Source: an uncultured Methanobacteriaceae archaeon
GTDB lineage: Archaea > Methanobacteriota > Methanobacteria > Methanobacteriales > Methanobacteriaceae
Reading direction: 5' to 3'
DNA: 32,000 nucleotides
NCBI GenBank assembly: GCA_963698135.1
Contig: CAVOPP010000011.1
Location: forward strand, 198,954 to 230,953
Shown one piece after another: positions 1,286 to 23,151 of the stretch. The notes under the pieces were generated by a model. The model was given only the letters and a program-made list of their open reading frames with translations. It ran no database searches and had not been told where the DNA came from. A program made the position numbers and the translations under genes. How positions within the stretch are numbered: the stretch's first letter is position 1; every line of letters starts with the position of its first letter.

Positions 1286-2846
1286 ATGAGTACAAGCAAG
1301 GGAGCAGCAAAGCTACTAAGAGGAAGTTTCCTCTTGATGATAAGTAATCTCCTTTTTAGAGTAGGAGGTTACATATATCGATTTTTAATGGCTAGACTGC
1401 TGGGTCCTGAAGGATACGGAATATTAGGATACACTCTGTTTTTCCAAGGCGTATTTCAGGTTCTTTCTGCAGGAGGATTGCCTCCGGCCATTGCCAAGTA
1501 TGTTTCTCAGCATAAAGCCCTTGAAGAAGATCAAATGGCCAGCCAAGTGGTTTTCACATCGCTAAAATTTATGATGTTTCTGGGAATTTTCTTTTCCATA
1601 GTTATGTTTTTCATTGGGCCAATAATAGCCAATGATATCTGGCATAAACCCGCCGCTAGCCCTTCCTCTTCAAGCAGTAGCATTAATCACTCCTTTTAGT
1701 GTTATAGTAGGGGCTTTTAGAGGCGCATTCCAGGGAATATATAAAATGGAATATGTGGTTGTTACGAGAGCCGTGGAACAGGTTTTCATGATTGTTTTTG
1801 CAGTCGTTCTGGTAATGCTTGGATTTTACGCTGCAGGAGCAGTTATAGGGACAGGAATAGGATTTATGGCCTCCGCAGCTTCAGCCGTAATCATTTTTCG
1901 AAAATATATGTGGAAATATTTGCCCTCACTCGATCCTGAACATAAGTTCAATTTTAGACAGGAAATGGGGCTTATAAAGACCCTTTTAATATTCTCCATA
2001 CCAGTTATCATTACTGCATTATCAGAGATGTCCATTTACGGAGCAAGTATATTTATTTTAGGAATTTTTATGGCCACCAAGTTTAGTGGTTATTATAATG
2101 CCGTAGATCCCATAGCTCGTCTTCCCCTGGTAATATCCCTTTCAGTAGCTACTGCAGTGCTTCCAGCAGCTTCTGAGGCCTTTGCTTTGAAAGATAAAGT
2201 ATTATTAACAACTTATGTAGTTCAATCTTATCGTATGGTAGTTTTAACTGTTCTTCCTCTCTGTATTGGTATTGCTGTCTTTGCCAGGCCGCTTTTGGAG
2301 CTTCTTTTCGGTGTTGATTATATATATGGAGCTGGAGCATTAAGCATATTAGTAATTGGAATGGCATTTTATACCCTATTCATGGTATCCTCCAGCATCG
2401 CCCAGGGATTAGGATATCCCCGGTTACCCATGTACATTTTAGTGGCGGGTAGTGTGGTGAATATAACCTTAAACTGGTTCCTCATACAGTTTTATGGTAT
2501 TATTGGTGCAGCATTAGCTACAACCATTACTGCATTTGTTATAATGATACCTATTTTGTGGAAAACCTATAAAATTACTGAAGTAAAATTGCCATTCATG
2601 GCCTTTGCCAAAATAACTTTAGCCTCCGTAATTATGGGATTAGGAATTTATCTTATCCCTCAAACAATCCCTGGACTAATCATGGCCATTATAATTGCCC
2701 CAATTATATACGTAATCGCCTTCACATTTTTAAAAGGGTTTGAAAAAAGGGACATCCGCATGATGCGTAAAATTGGATCCCGAATGGGCCCATTATCTCG
2801 GCCAGTCGAAAAATTACTTACCTTCATTGATAAATATGCCAAATAA
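1286..2846 (+). pseudogene. MOP-superfamily polysaccharide/oligosaccharide flippase (Wzx/MurJ-like), split by one frameshift near 1650
   Basis: ORFs 1286-1699 and 1632-2846 are in different frames but form one multi-TM protein of about 520 aa. The N-terminus GSFLLMISNLLFRVGGYIYRFLMARLLGPEGYGILG is typical of Polysacc_synt flippases. Reading continues sensibly as HKPA|LALPLQAVALITPFSV if one base is removed around 1650-1655. The frame-2 tail (ASPSSSSSSINHSF*) is low-complexity nonsense. Confidence 0.7.
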
Positions 2847-3628: not shown

Positions 3629-3677
3629 TTATAACTTATCACTTATAAGTTAAAAGTTGTAACTTATAACTTATAAT
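3629..3677. repeat. heptad array A: seven phased 7-bp units TTATAAN
   Basis: Read directly: TTATAAC TTATCAC TTATAAG TTAAAAG TTGTAAC TTATAAC TTATAAT. It contains the palindrome ACTTATAAGT. It lies between the ModE-like pseudogene end (3622) and the SD/ATG of the ferredoxin gene (3697). Confidence 0.85.
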
Positions 3678-9162: not shown

Positions 9163-9413
9163 AAGAAAACATGAAGTGATGAGTGGACTTTTAATCTCGT
9201 TAAATTTAGTTATAATCTTTTCACCTCCAAATTTAAGTAAATTTAAAGTAATAATTTACTACCAATACTTATAATGAATAATACTTTAAAGTTTCGATTT
9301 AAATTTCAAAAAAAAAGATTATTCTAAAAATAATTTTACGAAGTTAAAATAAATGAATCTAAATTTAAGTAAAGATATTCCTTTTTAACATTTTTATTGA
9401 AAATAAACATTAA

Positions 9414-9434
9414 TTCATAATTCATAATTCATAA
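9414..9434. repeat. three perfect tandem heptads TTCATAA
   Basis: Read directly: TTCATAA TTCATAA TTCATAA, flanked by the degenerate units ACATTAA and TTAATTT. It lies in the intergenic region between the two surface-protein genes. Confidence 0.8.
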
Positions 9435-9468
9435 TTAATTTTAAAATAAAAAAGTAGGAAAATAATAA

Positions 9469-12400
9469 TTATTTTCCTGTTTTGAATCTAAATGAACAGC
9501 TATTGGCCAGATTATTTCCCGCATAGTCTTTTACAGCACCAGAAGGAATATAAACTGAGTACCAAGTATAACTACTTCTTTTCAAGGCAGTGTTAATTTT
9601 AAGAACGTTTCCAGAAATGGATACGCTAATTTTTACTAACTTACCTGTTTTAAGGTTTTTAATATAAACCTTGGACCAGTTAACACTACTTTTAAGGTTT
9701 TCAGATAATTTCACGTAGATTGTGGAAGTTCTGGAAACATTAACAGCCTTGTGCTTAGGATAAGTTAAAACTACCTTAGGGGCCACTTTATCTATATTAT
9801 AAGTTGCAGGATACACTTGTGAGGGATTACCTGAATCATCAACAGCTAAAAACTTCAAAATGGTTGATGAGCTAATAGTTATGGGTCCCGTGTATTTTGT
9901 GCTGTTAGTAGTGGGCGTGGAACCATTTAAAGTGTAGTATATACTACCTGCTTCGCTCATGGTTAGAGAAATTACCTTATTGGTGTTATAAAGTCCGCTT
10001 TTCAGATTGGCCCAGGCCTGAGGCATGTTTTTGTCTATGCTATAATTTTCTTCATAGATTGTAGAAGGATTTCCAGATTCATCTATAGCTAAAAACTTCA
10101 AAACAGTGCTAGAATTAATACTAATAGGACCAAAATACTTAATACTAAGATTACTCGGCGTAGAACCATCCAAAGTATAATAAATAACCCCTGGCTCACT
10201 CATATTCAAACTAACCAGTTGATTGGTATTATACGATCCACTCTTAATATCCGCAATTGCTGTAGGTAAAACCTTGTCAATATCATATGCTTCAACAGCC
10301 ACTTCTGAAGGATTTCCAGCCAAATCAACAGCTAAAAACTTCAAAATAGACGTATTGTTTATAGATATTGGGCCAGAATACTTAATACTGGAATTACTCG
10401 GAGTAGAATTATCCAAAGTATAATAAATACTACCAGACTCACTCATAACCAAACTAACCAACTGATCAACATTAAACAATCCACCCAAAACATCAGCCCA
10501 AACAGTAGGAACAACCTTATCAACTACATAAGATTCAGAACCAACTAAAGAAGGATTTCCAGCCAAATCTACAGCTAAAAACTTCAAAATAGACGTATTG
10601 TTTATAGATATTGGGCCAGAATACTTAGTACTGGAATTACTCGGAGTAGAATTATCCAAAGTATAATAAATACTACCAGACTCACTCATAGCCAAACTAA
10701 CCAACTGATCAACATTAAACAATCCACCCAAAACATCAGCCCAAACTGTAGGAACAACCTTATCAACAGTGAAACTAGAATCAAATCCATTTGACAAATT
10801 ATTACCTACTAAGTCCATCACCGCGTTCGCCGGTATGTTCAAATTATAACCCCCATCCACATAATCGGCTGTTGGAGTTAAAAACAAAACATTCCCTACG
10901 ATGGTTTTATTCATATGGACAATACCAGAAGGTCCGGTTACACTAATACTACCAAAATAACTGCCTTCTTGAATAAATTCGCTGAAAGTAATAGTGATTA
11001 ACTTATTTCCAATGTTTATAAAAGCATTATTAATTGGATCAGTAATGTTTACAATTGGAGGAGTTGTATCCGGTGTCCAGATTAAGTTGTCTACCCAACC
11101 ACAATTAGAACCCACAGAATTGTTGTCACTACCGTCTTTAGTGTAACTCCACTTTAGAGTGTGTATCCCCGGGCCTAAAATGAAATTTTTATTTTGCCAA
11201 TCCTGTTCCCCACTTATACTAAATTGTTCTAAACCATCAATAAAGAATCTTAAAAAGTCATGTCCTGATTCGGATGATACTTTCCAATCAAAGTTCAGAT
11301 ATCCTAAACCTTCCACCAGGGTACTCATCCAGGTGGTCTCATTATTCCAGATAAACCCGCTTTGAGCAGAATTTGTATCGTTTTGACCTATATTTTGGGT
11401 CCCAAACCAGGTAACATTTCCGGTTCCATTAGTAGTCCAGTTAAGAAGTTCATTTTCTAAAGCTATTCCAATAGGCAACAATCCCTTCCATCCAAATGCT
11501 GCAGATGTCTGATTTTTGGGGCTGGCCAGATTGTAAACATATATTCCGGAGGATCCGGAATACCAATTACTATTGGGAGTTGTGGACGGGCCAAAGTATT
11601 TAGAAGGTCTATAAACATCTCCAGCATCAGCATCGTGAGACCCGTTTTGTATATCAAACAATCCATCGGCTTGTACTAAATCAACTAGATTATGAACCGT
11701 GTTGGAATTATCATAGAAAAATCTTCCATTGGCATCTAAGGTAGCATCAATATGCCAGATATACAGACCATCAGCCGGTACTCCTCCAGCCCATTTACCC
11801 GTGGACGGGTAATAAAAGTATTTATCATTTCCAGTTTTTTTCCGGTATTCCACCATATAAAACTCTTTATTTTCAGGACCCAAAAACTGGCCAGGGTAAA
11901 TTAATACACTGCTATGAGTTCCATTTAATTCTGCGGGGTTGAGAATTAGCTGCTGATCAAGGGCACTAACATCCGTTACATAATACGGGTTTATCCATCC
12001 CAATAACATTTTAAAGAAACAATTAAAGTCAGAAGACCCTCCATCCATCATATCCAGGCCACCGACACCATATCCCGGACCATTTATGTTAGTGTAAGGA
12101 GCAGTTCCAGTATCGTAATCATAAAGATCAGGTAACCCTAATAAATGTCCAGTTTCGTGTATATCAGTTTTAGGATTGGCTCCATACTCTGCCCACATAT
12201 ATTTATTCATTTTCACGCCATCTACAGTGAAATTATTACTACTTGGCAAAGTAATTACATATGACCACCAGGTACTTCCCCATCCAGTATCAGGACCGGC
12301 CCATTTTAAGGCCATGCCTTCCATATACCCGTCGCCATTGTTATCATATTGGGAGAAGTCCGTGGTGTTATCATAATAATTCATGACTTCCATCATCAAT

Positions 12401-16076: not shown

Positions 16077-16179
16077 GAATTTTCTCCATCAAGTACTTTC
16101 TTTATCCATTCAATCAGTTATATCCTTAAACCAGGTAGGATTATTTAATTTTCTTTATTCATTTTATCAGTTATAATCC

Positions 16180-19099: not shown

Positions 19100-19627
19100 T
19101 TATGATTTTGCTAAGTATTTAGCCTTCGTTACATGAGATTTACCATGAACTAGACAATAATCAGCGTCACAAGCACTGCAAACCCACATTCCTTCCGGAC
19201 ATGAGCTTCCACGTTCGTATTTTACCTTCCCTAACTTTTTACAGTAGGGACAGTAATTTTTGAATTTTGATGTGTGTTCCTTGTAATCCTGGTGTAAACT
19301 GCAAGAACATCGGCCAGTTGATTCCACGTATTCTGAAGTTGCATAAACTTTGGAAGCCCCTACCTTAGCTAAATAGGATTTAGTGGATTTTCTGGTTTTT
19401 TTCTTGTATTTATGGTACTTTCTGTATTTCTTATACTTATTGTACTTCTTGTACTTCTTGTATTTTTTATATTTCTTGTATTTTTTATATTTCTTATATG
19501 CATCCACAGCAGGTGCTTTAGTTACCTGTGCAGTTACTTTTGTAGTATCTACATTTTTGGATACATTAATTTCTCCAAAAATCGGCACAATGGACACCAC
19601 CATACAAGTTGCTAGTGCCAGGGCCAT
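19100..19627 (-). CDS. secreted Lys/Tyr-repeat protein with C-terminal 8-Cys zinc-ribbon-like domain
   Basis: A hydrophobic N-terminus (ALALATCMVVSIVPIFG) is followed by 11 consecutive Y-x-K triplets. The C-terminal part reads CSCSLH...CPYC...C...CSAC...C..H. A probable in-frame extension to ATA 19648 / ATT 19645 sits behind a GGAGG. Confidence 0.6.
   Translation of the reverse strand: MALALATCMVVSIVPIFGEINVSKNVDTTKVTAQVTKAPAVDAYKKYKKYKKYKKYKKYKKYNKYKKYRKYHKYKKKTRKSTKSYLAKVGASKVYATSEYVESTGRCSCSLHQDYKEHTSKFKNYCPYCKKLGKVKYERGSSCPEGMWVCSACDADYCLVHGKSHVTKAKYLAKS
19400..19498 (-). repeat. in-frame 9-bp/18-bp tandem repeat encoding (Tyr-x-Lys)11
   Basis: YKK x6, YNK, YKK, YRK, YHK, YKK. The plus strand shows cttgtactt cttgtactt and tatttcttgtatttttta x2. 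Confidence 0.9.
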
Positions 19628-20454: not shown

Positions 20455-21570
20455 ATGAATACTATGCGCAAAATGCAGGTCCTGAGCGATACCGCACAGT
20501 TCGATCTGTGTGACTATGTGAACCATCAAACGCAGTCCCGGCCTAATTTACCGGGGATTTATTACAGTACAGTGAGTGGTGGCTGCCAGGTTCCGTTATT
20601 TAAAGTTTTAATGACCAATAAATGCCGTAATGATTGCAAATATTGTGTTAATCATAGTAAGAGAAATTTTACCAGAATGGAACTTACTCCGGAAGAATTG
20701 ACACGGGTTTTCTTGAATTATTATCAAAATAAATATGTAGAAGGATTATTTTTAAGTTCAGGGATTTCTGGAGATATTGATCCATCCATGGAGAAAGTGG
20801 TGGAAGTAGCCCGTCTTTTAAGATTAGAGCATGGTTATTCAGGTTATATTCACCTGAAAATTCTTCCCGGTTCATCAAAAGACCTTATTAAAAGGGCTAT
20901 GGGTTTAGCTAATAGAGTAAGTGTAAATATTGAGGCAGCGACCCCTGATGGCCTGGCAGAGCTTTCCAGTACCAAGGACTATCAAAAAGATATCATGCGT
21001 CGTTTAAAATGGATAAGAAATATCCATAATAAAGATCCACTTTACGCCCCTTCTGGTCAAACTACCCAGTTGATTGTGGGGGCCACCGATGAAACTGACG
21101 AAGATATCTTGAACAGGGTTAAGTGGCTTTATGATAAATTAGATGTTAAAAGAAGCTATTTTAGTAGTTTTAAACCACTGGAAGATACACCCCTGCAAAA
21201 TAGGGGAGAACCCCACCCTAAAAGATCAAATCGACTTTATCAGGCCGATGCCCTTTTGAATTCCTATAATTTTGACTTAAAAGAGCTTATTTTTCAGGAC
21301 AGTGGACTTTTAAATGTAGGAGAGGATCCTAAATATTCAGCAGCACTGGAAATGGATATTTTCCCTGTAGAAATAAATCAAGCACCTTACCGTCATTTAA
21401 TCCGGGTCCCGGGAATAGGTACTGTATCTGCTAAAAAGATTATAGTTATTCGTAAAAAGAGACCATTTACTAAATTGGAAGAATTGAAAAAATTAGGTGT
21501 GGTCGTGGGAAGAGCTGAACCATTTATTAAACTTAAAGGAATTTATCAGACCGCGCTGGATGTTTTTTAA
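20455..21570 (+). CDS. radical SAM protein with C-terminal helix-hairpin-helix, putative DNA modification/repair radical SAM family
   Basis: CRNDCKYCVN (CxxxCxxC). The N-terminal KMQVLSDTAQFDLCDY resembles the conserved start of the putative DNA modification/repair radical SAM family. The C-terminal IRVPGIGTVSAKKIIVIRKK is an HhH motif. Confidence 0.7.
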   Translation: MNTMRKMQVLSDTAQFDLCDYVNHQTQSRPNLPGIYYSTVSGGCQVPLFKVLMTNKCRNDCKYCVNHSKRNFTRMELTPEELTRVFLNYYQNKYVEGLFLSSGISGDIDPSMEKVVEVARLLRLEHGYSGYIHLKILPGSSKDLIKRAMGLANRVSVNIEAATPDGLAELSSTKDYQKDIMRRLKWIRNIHNKDPLYAPSGQTTQLIVGATDETDEDILNRVKWLYDKLDVKRSYFSSFKPLEDTPLQNRGEPHPKRSNRLYQADALLNSYNFDLKELIFQDSGLLNVGEDPKYSAALEMDIFPVEINQAPYRHLIRVPGIGTVSAKKIIVIRKKRPFTKLEELKKLGVVVGRAEPFIKLKGIYQTALDVF

Positions 21571-21611
21571 TTTAATATTATATATTATGTATTGTGATAA
21601 CCTAAAATGAA

Positions 21612-21660
21612 TTATAAGTTATAACTTATAAGTTATGTGTTATAATTTATAACTTATAAT
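21612..21660. repeat. heptad array B: seven phased 7-bp units TTATAAN in the convergent gap downstream of the ParA partner gene
   Basis: Read directly: TTATAAG TTATAAC TTATAAG TTATGTG TTATAAT TTATAAC TTATAAT. It contains the perfect 20-bp palindrome TTATAAGTTATAACTTATAA (21612-21631) and the 16-bp palindrome ATAACTTATAAGTTAT (21621-21636). Confidence 0.9.
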
Positions 21661-21703
21661 AAAAATATTTTAAAAAAAATATTATTTAATGAATTTAAAG
21701 TGA

Positions 21704-22270
21704 CTATAATTCGTCAAATAGATCCCATATCTCAGGATATTTCTCTTTTACGGCATCTTCAATTAATTTAGAAGCTTCTTTACTGATACTAAATTCTGGC
21801 TGAGTTTTTTTAAGATACCTTAAAACTGCCGCCGAACGAGAAGACCAGAGAGTTATCCGAGGATTTTTTCTAACATCACTTGTTACCATGTTTATTCTTT
21901 CAGCATCAGCAGAAATTGGTTTTTTATTACCCGATTCTTTACTCTCAGAATATTTTTCAGTTGATAAAACCTCTGCTGATTCATTGGTTTTTTTATTAGA
22001 ACTAGATGAAGATGATTTGGTGGATTTTGTAGAATTAGATTTTTTTCTTTTACTTGACTTTTTAACAGATTCGATTTTAGAATTATATGTATCTGAATCT
22101 TTAATGCTATCTGATTTTTTCTTTAAAATATCTTTTTCGTCTTTATCAGACTCAAAGCTCCCTGATTCCTCTTGAGGCTCTTCTCTAGTTTTGGATTTAA
22201 TAAGAGCGTCCAAACCCATTCCTAATCCCGAACTTTTTGAAGGAGATTTACGTCGGGCCATTTTAACCAT
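21704..22270 (-). CDS. ParA partner protein: Spo0J-like N-terminal peptide + Ser/Lys-rich disordered linker + C-terminal RHH-like domain (SegB/omega-like centromere-binding candidate)
   Basis: Its start overlaps the parA stop (ATGGTTAAAATG; alternative ATG at 22261). The N-terminus RRKSPSKSSGLGMGLDALIKSK resembles the ParB/Spo0J GLGRGLDALL ParA-activating peptide. Residues about 25-130 are S/K/E/D low complexity. The C-terminal RITLWSSRSAAVLRYLKK..SISKEASKLIEDAVKEKY fits a strand-helix-helix pattern. No ParB/Srx or HTH domain was recognised. Confidence 0.6.
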   Translation of the reverse strand: MVKMARRKSPSKSSGLGMGLDALIKSKTREEPQEESGSFESDKDEKDILKKKSDSIKDSDTYNSKIESVKKSSKRKKSNSTKSTKSSSSSSNKKTNESAEVLSTEKYSESKESGNKKPISADAERINMVTSDVRKNPRITLWSSRSAAVLRYLKKTQPEFSISKEASKLIEDAVKEKYPEIWDLFDEL

Positions 22271-23033
22271 CCCGTTTGAGAAGTTCCTGGGCCAGTTTCA
22301 AATAGGCAGTAGTTCCAGCACTTTCTTGATCATAAAGAATACATGGTTTTCCATAACTGGGGGCCTCTGCCAACCTCACATTACGAGGTATGGTGGTTTT
22401 AAATATGTATTCCTTCTCACCAAAGTATTTTTTTACTTCTTGATGGACATCCCTAGCCAGACGTGTTCTAGAATCATACAAAGTTATTAAAATTCCCTTA
22501 ACCGGGGATGAACTCTGTAAACGTTCTTCTACAAGATTTATAGTTTTCAGTAAATCTGCCATTCCTTCCAAAGCATAGTATTCTGCTTGTATAGGTATTA
22601 TAACGCTATCTGATGCAACCAATGCATTTAAAGTGAGTATTCCCAGGGAAGGGGGAACATCAATCAATATATAATCAAACATTCCTTTAACAACTTTTAA
22701 TGAATCCTGTAAAATGGAATGGTAACCGATTTCTCTACTAAGTTCAACTTCTGCCCCACTAAGTGAAATATTACTTGGAACAAGGTATAAATCGTCCAGA
22801 ACAGTGGGAATCATGGCTTCTTCCATATTATTCTGCCGGGTCAACACAGAGTATATGGTATTTTCCAATTCTCCTTTTTGAACACCAAATCCCGTTGTAG
22901 CATTTCCCTGGGGATCCAGGTCAATAACCAGGACCTTCTTATCCATTAGAGCCAGTGCAGTCGACAAATTCACAGCTGTGGTTGTTTTTCCACACCCGCC
23001 TTTTTGATTAATAATTGAAATTACTTCACCCAT
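22263..23033 (-). CDS. parA: ParA/Soj family partition ATPase
   Basis: Deviant Walker A NQKGGCGKTTTAVNLSTALA, DLDPQGNAT, and end-to-end resemblance to chromosomal Soj. Start placed at ATG 23033 (GAGGT SD 6 nt upstream) rather than the listed TTG at 23048. Confidence 0.9.
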   Translation of the reverse strand: MGEVISIINQKGGCGKTTTAVNLSTALALMDKKVLVIDLDPQGNATTGFGVQKGELENTIYSVLTRQNNMEEAMIPTVLDDLYLVPSNISLSGAEVELSREIGYHSILQDSLKVVKGMFDYILIDVPPSLGILTLNALVASDSVIIPIQAEYYALEGMADLLKTINLVEERLQSSSPVKGILITLYDSRTRLARDVHQEVKKYFGEKEYIFKTTIPRNVRLAEAPSYGKPCILYDQESAGTTAYLKLAQELLKRDG

Positions 23034-23082
23034 GAAAAAACCTCGCAAGACTAGTTAAATTAAGATTTATGAGAATCATTTT

Positions 23083-23121: not shown

Positions 23122-23151
23122 TTATAATAATTATAAGTTATAAGTTATAAT
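23122..23151. repeat. heptad array C: TTATAAT-aa-TTATAAG TTATAAG TTATAAT upstream of parA
   Basis: Read directly: four perfect TTATAAN units with one 2-bp phase break. Degenerate units flank it (TTCTTAA 23115-23121, TATTTTG 23152-23158). It lies about 90-120 bp upstream of the parA start. Confidence 0.8.

Follow-up and report, generated by a model that had tools for sequence, protein, structure and literature searches.

Phased TTATAAN heptad arrays beside a ParA/SegB-type cassette of Methanobacteriaceae as candidate segS-like binding sites

What purpose might be served by seven heptads, set in strict 7-bp phase, immediately downstream of a ParA-type partition cassette on an archaeal chromosome? 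We considered this question for a 32,000-nucleotide stretch from an uncultured Methanobacteriaceae archaeon (contig CAVOPP010000011.1, positions 198,954 to 230,953; here called the window), in which the array at 21612-21660, designated array B, reads TTATAAG TTATAAC TTATAAG TTATGTG TTATAAT TTATAAC TTATAAT. The adjacent cassette consists of a parA gene and a gene for a 188-residue SegB-like protein, referred to below as parA-segB or segAB. We propose that array B is one of several segS-like centromere/operator arrays for the adjacent SegB-type ribbon-helix-helix (RHH) protein, a reading drawn from sequence comparison to which we assign a probability of roughly 0.78. The first-pass annotation of this DNA had suggested the array as a centromere candidate for the ParA cassette, and comparative evidence, namely the SegB RHH domain of the partner, the positional bias of the arrays and the retention of the heptads across genera, lends support to that suggestion.

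Array B is composed of three perfect heptads (21612-21632), the degenerate unit TTATGTG (21633-39) and a further three perfect heptads (21640-60). On re-reading, both the heptads and the strict 7-bp phasing matched the first-pass annotation exactly, and Tandem Repeats Finder returned a period of 7 with 6.9 copies. The array follows the segB stop codon at a distance of 44 bp and lies in a 133-bp convergent gap between a radical-SAM gene, which stops at 21570, and the minus-strand 188-aa gene at 21704-22270; the previously given limits of this gap (21570 and 21704) were upheld. The 16- and 20-bp perfect palindromes that had been described are real, lying at 21621-21636 and 21612-21631, respectively, and are the longest two in the window. 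Chance can be ruled out for the heptads because three kinds of evidence agree. In the window, TTATAANTTATAA with at most one mismatch occurs 12 times against 1.37 expected, a count reached by 0 of 100 shuffles. Arrays of at least three units appeared in none of 300 third-order Markov simulations of the window. In a scan of all hexamers at offsets of 6-21 bp, covering the window and five related loci, TTATAA was the sole recurring palindromic hexamer and did so only at offsets 7, 14 and 21, with no recurrence found at offsets 6, 8, 9, 10 or 11. The phased heptads of array B are therefore real and beyond chance, as had been argued from the presence of seven units in phase.

The comparison set comprised eight independent segAB loci (L001-L006, L127 and L130) retrieved via SegB homologues, giving nine with the window, and spanned Methanobacterium spp. 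(including M. congolense), Methanothermobacter tenebrarum and two Methanobrevibacter spp. An array was found upstream of parA in all nine loci, for example as TTATAAC TTATAAC TTATAAT in L001, L002 and L005, or as TTGTAAG TTATAAC TTATAAG TTATAGG, adjoining a TATA-like box, in Methanothermobacter. The downstream layout of three units, a spacer and three units, as in the window, was shared by the Methanobacterium-type loci L001, L002, L003 and L005, and also by L055. Universal occurrence is seen only for the array upstream of parA; the downstream array B is confined to Methanobacterium-type genomes. The heptads are kept across the three genera and the spacer around them diverges. Across the nine loci, 19 of the 21 sub-arrays of at least three units fell within the two segAB-flanking gaps, which account for 3.85 kb of 181.7 kb (2%). 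Position 7 was G or C in 107 of the 119 inner units of the archaeal arrays (59 G, 48 C), in genomes of about 36% GC. The overlap arrangement of parA and segB is identical in all related loci, and the arrays stay with this pair despite different upstream neighbours (TrmB-thrS in Methanobacterium, PALP in Methanobrevibacter). A linkage of the arrays to TrmB or ThrRS was considered and rejected, since the arrays stay with parA-segB where those neighbours have been replaced. Between the three genera there is hardly any change in the RHH strand and helices, or in the heptad, while SegB identity is about 40% between genera in which the positions of the arrays are conserved.

The segB-like gene (21704-22270, minus strand) encodes 188 residues, in which a ParA-binding-type motif at the N-terminus is followed by a disordered linker rich in K, S and E and then by a SegB-type RHH domain at the C-terminus (21707-21892, minus strand; residues ~127-188) with the beta-strand PRITLWS. 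The protein has no Pfam or NCBIfam match. In a phmmer search against the PDB, residues 104-186 matched SegB of Saccharolobus solfataricus (7DUV_A, E=8.3e-9; 7DV2_A, E=9.6e-7); only SegB was listed, with no match to omega even at E<=10. The AlphaFold2 monomer was poor (mean predicted local distance difference test score 57), with the C-terminal helices only and the strand absent, as expected of an obligate RHH dimer, and searching the PDB with this model in Foldseek yielded no meaningful match. It is thus from sequence homology to SegB that the fold is assigned. In S. solfataricus SegB the residues K52, W56 and K75 touch bases, and K52 is reported as arginine in euryarchaeal homologues (PMC8682754). 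Here W56 is kept, K52 is replaced by R and K75 by S, and the strand is R-I-T-L-W against K-I-G-V-W in S. solfataricus (G54 replaced by T). Since the RHH strand is homologous and the base-contacting residues are partly changed, the SegB fold and binding mode are expected to be kept with a different hexamer specificity. The published SegB signature, K/R-D/N-P-K/R-I-G/T-V/L-W-S-Y/P-P/E (PMC12139799), is fitted by the first nine positions of K-N-P-R-I-T-L-W-S-S-R but not by the last two (S-R). Homologues of the 188-aa protein number more than 1,400, and of the 120 listed all those with a named source belong to Methanobacteriales; in an alignment of 21 of the homologues (A1) the RHH region scarcely varies and the middle linker is hypervariable. 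A search with a fragment of S. solfataricus SegB gave 37 matches, in Sulfolobales only.

The other half of the cassette, parA (22263-23033, minus strand), encodes a Soj-type deviant Walker A ATPase (Pfam AAA_31, 1e-65) and overlaps segB by 8 bp. By comparison with L001-L003, its start is likely the ATG at 23033 (MGEVISI, preceded by GAGGT) and not the TTG at 23048. This ParA gave 2.5e-76 to Myxococcus xanthus ParA (8RAY), 1e-60 to Soj proteins, 1e-19 to Sulfolobus SegA (7DUT) and 9e-10 to ParF. The N-terminal motif of its partner, L16-G-M-G-L20-D-A-L23-I24 (22199-22225, minus strand), has L16, G17, G19, L20, L23 and I24 invariant in alignment A1. The spacing of this LGxGLDALI motif equals that of L11, R13, L15, L18 and I19, the residues of M. 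xanthus ParB that bind ParA (PMC12462528). Its central residue is Met or Leu in the clade of the window (M18 in the window protein) and Arg or Lys in Methanothermobacter and Methanobrevibacter, most homologues having R or K there; in the bacterial motif, aliphatic residues surround a central R or K. In Sulfolobales the SegB N-terminus reads MSELDFLLKKK against GLG(M/L/R/K)GLD(A/S)LI here, the common part being an L-D-x-L-[LI] core followed by basic residues. The 31-aa N-terminal peptide of one homologue (P0041) had no match among PDB sequences, the query being too short. Since the ATPase is nearer to bacterial ParA/Soj than to SegA, and its partner carries both the LGxGLDxLI motif and the SegB RHH domain, the cassette is a hybrid in which a bacterial-type ParA is paired with a protein joining a ParB-type peptide to a SegB RHH domain. 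The affinity of the ParA and the N-terminal motif are at odds with a simple transfer of the SegAB cassette as a whole from Sulfolobaceae.

In S. solfataricus, SegB sites of the form TCTAGA-S-TCTAGA have been found by chromatin immunoprecipitation sequencing (ChIP-seq) and footprinting and are clustered next to segAB (PMC12284271), and in S. acidocaldarius segS is a triple 7-bp repeat, [AGNGTNN]x3 (PMC12139799). The TTATAA-S-TTATAA architecture mirrors that of these mapped sites. In the S. solfataricus segAB locus we also observed degenerate units in 7-bp phase upstream of segA. For Thermococcus, a 2025 study found no convincing SegB sites near segAB with the Sulfolobus motif and suggested that the euryarchaeal motif differs (PMC12284271). 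It is known from the literature that Sulfolobus SegB dimers wrap DNA as a left-handed protein helix and that the SegB N-terminus switches on the ATPase. If the arrays act similarly, one SegB RHH dimer would occupy each palindromic TTATAA hexamer, with neighbours 7 bp (~240 degrees) apart, and the dimers would wind left-handed about the DNA, in the manner of the SegB-S1 crystal packing and of omega on its heptads. A full turn of the protein helix would then take three heptads (21 bp, two DNA turns), and this would account for the module of three units that recurs. Array B would hold about 6-7 dimers, and their densely presented N-terminal LGxGLDALI peptides would stimulate nucleoid-bound ParA-ATP, which would lead to the segAB region being partitioned. 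Upstream of parA, the array probably autoregulates the operon too, and arrays in conserved gaps 6-25 kb away could extend the complex into a regional centromere.

The window carries further TTATAAN arrays that were absent from the first-pass annotation. Array C (23122-23151) has four heptads, TTATAAT aa TTATAAG TTATAAG TTATAAT, and is situated 89-118 bp before the parA ATG (23033), with a conserved TATA-like box, TTTAAAT, about 30 bp downstream of the array; we regard array C as a candidate operator and centromere site. Array A (3629-3677) has seven, TTATAAC TTATCAC TTATAAG TTAAAAG TTGTAAC TTATAAC TTATAAT, and is an intergenic satellite located 18 kb from segB, 41 bp before a ferredoxin-hisB gene pair. 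A two-unit site with one mismatch, TTATCAG TTATAA (16164-16176), is also intergenic and may represent either a weak site or a match by chance. Three phased TTATAAN units put TAA in all three frames of both strands, and with TAA in all six frames arrays of at least three units can only be intergenic. Two-unit 13-mers (TTATAASTTATAA) can fall within genes, and two are intragenic in L006. More than 80% of the 13-bp SegB sites of Sulfolobus are intragenic (PMC12284271), and it may be this stop-codon constraint that explains why the arrays here are bound to gaps in comparison with the mostly intragenic sites of Sulfolobus.

Two wider scans were made, both of which are samples and not per-genome censuses. 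The first covered one genome per species with the query TTATAASTTATAASTTATAA and found at least 120 stretches, of which 120 were listed and 14 were from Methanobacteriaceae. Among the matches listed, seven of these 14 were in a segAB-flanking gap, five, all from Methanobrevibacter, were satellites between the same HAD-hydrolase, AP-endonuclease and amidase genes, and one (L084) was in the UppP-IlvE gap 22.9 kb from parA on the same contig. Thus 13 of the 14 were at segAB, at a satellite or on a segAB contig, and one was unplaced. The HAD/AP-endonuclease/amidase satellite is 6.3 kb upstream of parA in L006, and the metagenome contig L213 carries these genes together with parA-segB. In the second scan, metagenomes were screened for the 20-mer palindrome without mismatch, giving at least 120 matches, of which 120 were listed. 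Among these, 32-34 were at Methanobacteriaceae segAB or its conserved satellite gaps: 18 adjoin the Methanobacteriaceae parA, segB, radical-SAM gene or thrS (16 of them within 570 bp of parA/segB), nine represent the Methanobrevibacter satellite and 5-6 the UppP-IlvE satellite. One 152-kb metagenome contig has copies of the 20-mer at 19.8, 34.8 and 59.4 kb, the 34.8-kb copy being just upstream of thrS; thrS precedes parA-segB in related loci, and the stretches fetched from this contig did not extend to parA. The arrays are concentrated around segAB at conserved intergenic positions, in agreement with Sulfolobales, where SegB sites cluster near segAB. The positional bias that the first-pass annotation had wished to see examined is therefore present, both in the nine loci (19 of 21 sub-arrays) and among the Methanobacteriaceae matches listed in the first scan (13 of 14 linked).

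A divergent parA/segB-like pair (L196, 1763-2985; 48% and 34% identity, respectively) has the beta-strand RPRVSFWS and is without the LGxGL motif. Three perfect heptads, TTATAAG TTATAAC TTATAAG, are located 71 bp upstream of its parA. Its neighbours, identified by eye, are two open reading frames (ORFs), one like a RelE/ParE toxin and the other resembling part of a type I restriction-modification gene, and the pair may be a mobile-element copy that uses TTATAAS sites. We count a divergent cassette with perfect heptads of its own in favour of the segS-like function.

Several observations weigh against that function. No downstream array is present in Methanothermobacter (L004), in L127 or in Methanobrevibacter (L006 and L130); L004 and L127 have almost no gap downstream of segB. 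The hexamer TTATAA differs from that of Sulfolobus at four of six positions, and its recognition by the RHH domain is predicted. Of the 120 metagenome 20-mer matches listed, 85 were without recognisable segAB context, and unidirectional (TTATAAC)n arrays were common, among the matches listed, in bacteria showing no SegB. Since the 20-mer turns up in unrelated contexts and bacteria have such runs, the heptad sequence alone is not diagnostic. To these points must be added the likeness of TTATAA to the archaeal TATA box and the folding of the array B gap, each of which favours an explanation of its own that is given below.

The bacterial runs themselves suggest that array B could be a neutral heptanucleotide microsatellite arising via replication slippage, like the heptamer repeats of cyanobacteria and Bacteroidota. 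Runs of (TTATAAC)n and (TTATAAG)n (L007-L126) were frequent in Poribacteria (several per metagenome-assembled genome, MAG), Bacteroidota, Clostridia and cyanobacteria, often beside other heptamer repeats, for example (GTCGTAA)n or CCACTTA-like units. However, the bacterial matches listed were strictly unidirectional (TTATAAC)n or (TTATAAG)n and microsatellite-like, whereas units with G and units with C (59 and 48) occur together in the archaeal arrays, a mixture that simple 7-bp slippage cannot bring about. Furthermore, the archaeal arrays hold their positions across genera with about 40% SegB identity and are concentrated around one operon. Slippage is for these reasons the least credible of the explanations considered, and we give it hardly any weight beside a segS-like function. 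A single case among the approximately 100 bacterial matches listed had (TTATAAC)5 exactly between parA and a gene starting MSTNKKPALGRGLSALL (a ParB N-terminus), at 7728-7762 of L021, a Bacteroidetes MAG.

TTATAA is composed of A and T only and is near the archaeal TATA consensus sequences. The arrays might then bind another factor (TBP/TFB, with the arrays as clustered TATA-like boxes, a chromatin protein or another regulator), with their linkage to parA-segB being regulatory or coincidental and unrelated to partition. The resemblance to a TATA box is in keeping with such a factor, and so is the finding that the arrays are always intergenic and often in promoter-bearing gaps, as with arrays C and A and the divergent HAD/amidase gap of L068 and L071. 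On the other hand, array B and the Methanobrevibacter AP-endonuclease/HAD satellite are in convergent gaps where a promoter is unneeded, which is consistent with the earlier view that a TATA-box explanation is weak. Neither the conserved G or C at position 7 nor the strict 7-bp register is expected on this account, the arrays track parA-segB across changed upstream neighbours, and their architecture equals that of experimentally mapped SegB sites. We therefore consider another factor unlikely, though the foremost of the alternatives, and a SegB-type protein the better candidate for the ligand.

The convergent location of array B raises the further possibility of a hairpin or cruciform serving as a bidirectional terminator between the radical-SAM and segB genes. 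The 21-nt arms at 21611-21631 and 21640-21660 are 95% complementary, and the gap as single-stranded DNA folds at -17.6 kcal/mol (z = -4.87). The heptads upstream of parA, however, are mostly of one orientation (TTATAAC TTATAAC TTATAAT) and form no long stem, it is the heptad and not the stem pairing that is conserved, and no Rfam family matches, here or anywhere else in the window. Moreover, an oligo-T8 tract (21672-21679, read from the sequence on the minus strand, that of segB) is already present between the segB stop codon and array B, oligo-T being the usual archaeal terminator signal; from its sequence it is a plausible archaeal terminator. A terminator function for array B itself is thus very improbable. 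For the segS-like arrays we favour, the same tract has a different implication, since with a terminator before it array B may fall outside the segAB transcript, which may be a sensible position for a centromere.

Amongst known systems, SegAB/segS (SSO0034/0035 of S. solfataricus; S. acidocaldarius) is the closest to the Methanobacteriaceae cassette. In both, a ParA-type ATPase gene overlaps the gene that follows it, which encodes a small protein combining a disordered N-terminus with an RHH domain at the C-terminus, and both have palindromic hexamers in a 7-bp register with a central G or C, clustered by the operon with more sites nearby. The differences are the hexamer (TTATAA here, not TCTAGA), the greater length of the arrays here (3+3 to 7 units) and their presence on both sides of the operon, the strictly intergenic placement of arrays of at least three units (compared with >80% intragenic in Sulfolobus), an ATPase not orthologous to SegA (1e-19 against 2.5e-76 to bacterial ParA) and the LGxGLDALI N-terminus in place of MSELDFLL. 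In the omega/delta system of plasmid pSM19035, one RHH dimer binds per contiguous 7-bp heptad, the arrays also act as operators ahead of the par promoter, and the partner ATPase, of ParA type, is activated by the N-terminus of the centromere-binding protein. The first-pass annotation had chosen this (type Ib) system as its analogy. The part that stands is the heptad register and an RHH partner, with contiguous 7-bp heptads also upstream of parA, where a parS/operator function would be predicted. The part that does not stand is the choice of nearest relative, SegAB/segS being closer and no sequence similarity to omega being detectable; in addition, the cassette here is chromosomal and not on a plasmid, and the heptad core is itself palindromic, direct or inverted orientation being set only by the G or C at position 7.

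The ParG/ParF system of TP228 is alike in having an RHH protein with a flexible N-terminal tail that stimulates a ParA-family ATPase, and ParG binds iterated short repeats and autoregulates. It differs in being a plasmid system with tetramer-box repeats and another ATPase subfamily (ParF, E=9e-10 to the ParA here). The SegB RHH domain is structurally related to both omega and ParG, with ParG the nearest at a root-mean-square deviation of 0.7 A (PMC8682754). Bacterial ParABS (Soj/Spo0J) shares the ATPase type, the ParB-type N-terminal ParA-binding motif in the partner, and several centromere sites (here candidates) clustered in one chromosomal region. Unlike ParB, the partner here is without the helix-turn-helix/CTPase domain (no Pfam match) and its DNA binding would be via the predicted RHH domain. 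The best match in the window to the bacterial parS 16-mer had 3 mismatches (1 against 0.55 expected), no better than chance.

On balance we also lean, with less conviction than for array B itself, towards a broader proposal in which Methanobacteriales have a chimeric segregation machine made up of a bacterial-type ParA, a protein joining a ParB peptide to a SegB RHH domain, and a regional centromere consisting of several intergenic TTATAAS arrays at conserved positions no more than ~25 kb from the operon. If this is true, the SegB scheme of palindromic hexamer, G or C, and hexamer in a 7-bp register would have been kept from Thermoproteota to Euryarchaeota with the hexamer re-specified, and methanogens would have in these arrays their first chromosomal centromere defined by sequence, and this in rod-shaped cells with histones. 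A 2016 review counts among its open questions the variation of SegAB in Euryarchaea, as well as the form of archaeal chromosomal centromeres and whether these are clustered (PMC5120986). No report of TTATAAS sites for methanogens was found in the literature. The arrays offer an exact, short and testable DNA target and with it a concrete centromere candidate for methanogens, and they suggest a rule by which SegB sites might be sought in other lineages, namely a palindromic hexamer recurring every 7 bp next to the operon. The hybrid protein pair is also relevant to the way in which partition components from bacteria and archaea were recombined. The finding is not surprising in kind, as it amounts to the predicted segS of Methanobacteriales within a hybrid ParA/SegB cassette.

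Species of Methanobacterium are rods. M. thermautotrophicus is likewise rod-shaped (PMC5120986). A preprint has linked SegB to spherical cells (PMC12139799); SegB homologues are widespread in the rod-shaped Methanobacterium and Methanothermobacter, an observation that bears on this idea. In L005 (M. congolense LT607756.1, 2436250-2451457) segAB is only ~5 kb from the end of the 2.45-Mb record, and if that record begins at the replication origin, the candidate centromere would be beside the origin. A replication-origin element was also considered as an explanation of the array; the window has no cdc6/orc1 gene.

The neighbours of the cassette are the chromosomal housekeeping genes thrS, ilvD, mtd and hisB. 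The window is from a Methanobacterium-type archaeon and has about 36% GC; an archaeal ThrRS with an editing domain, Mtd and TrmB are among its typical genes. The nearest public contig is from a Methanobacteriaceae MAG (L017), with 94% identity for ParA and ThrRS. The radical-SAM protein with an HHH domain (20455-21570, plus strand) has TIGR03916 (putative DNA modification/repair) as its best NCBIfam match, just under the cutoff, and its gene is convergent with segB in every Methanobacteriaceae locus examined (the window, L001-L006, L127 and L130), giving a conserved trio of parA, segB and the radical-SAM gene. A 175-aa ORF at 19100-19627 (minus strand) has a KYKKY run encoded by 9-bp tandem repeats (19400-19499) and a Cys-rich, zinc-ribbon-like C-terminus. 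This ORF has no Pfam match, and a similar one, also without a Pfam match, is at the corresponding spot in L001 and L002. Further away, overlapping ORFs at 1286-1699 and 1632-2846 (plus strand) match the N- and C-terminal parts of one Polysacc_synt/MurJ flippase family, which suggests a frameshift, from either a pseudogene or a sequencing error. A heptamer run of another sequence, (TAATTCA)x3.7, lies at 9411-9436 between two adhesin-like genes, and a 1185-aa adhesin-like ORF contains a 243-bp repeat (x2.9, at 10063-10767) that encodes CHB_HEX_C_1/Fn3_assoc modules.

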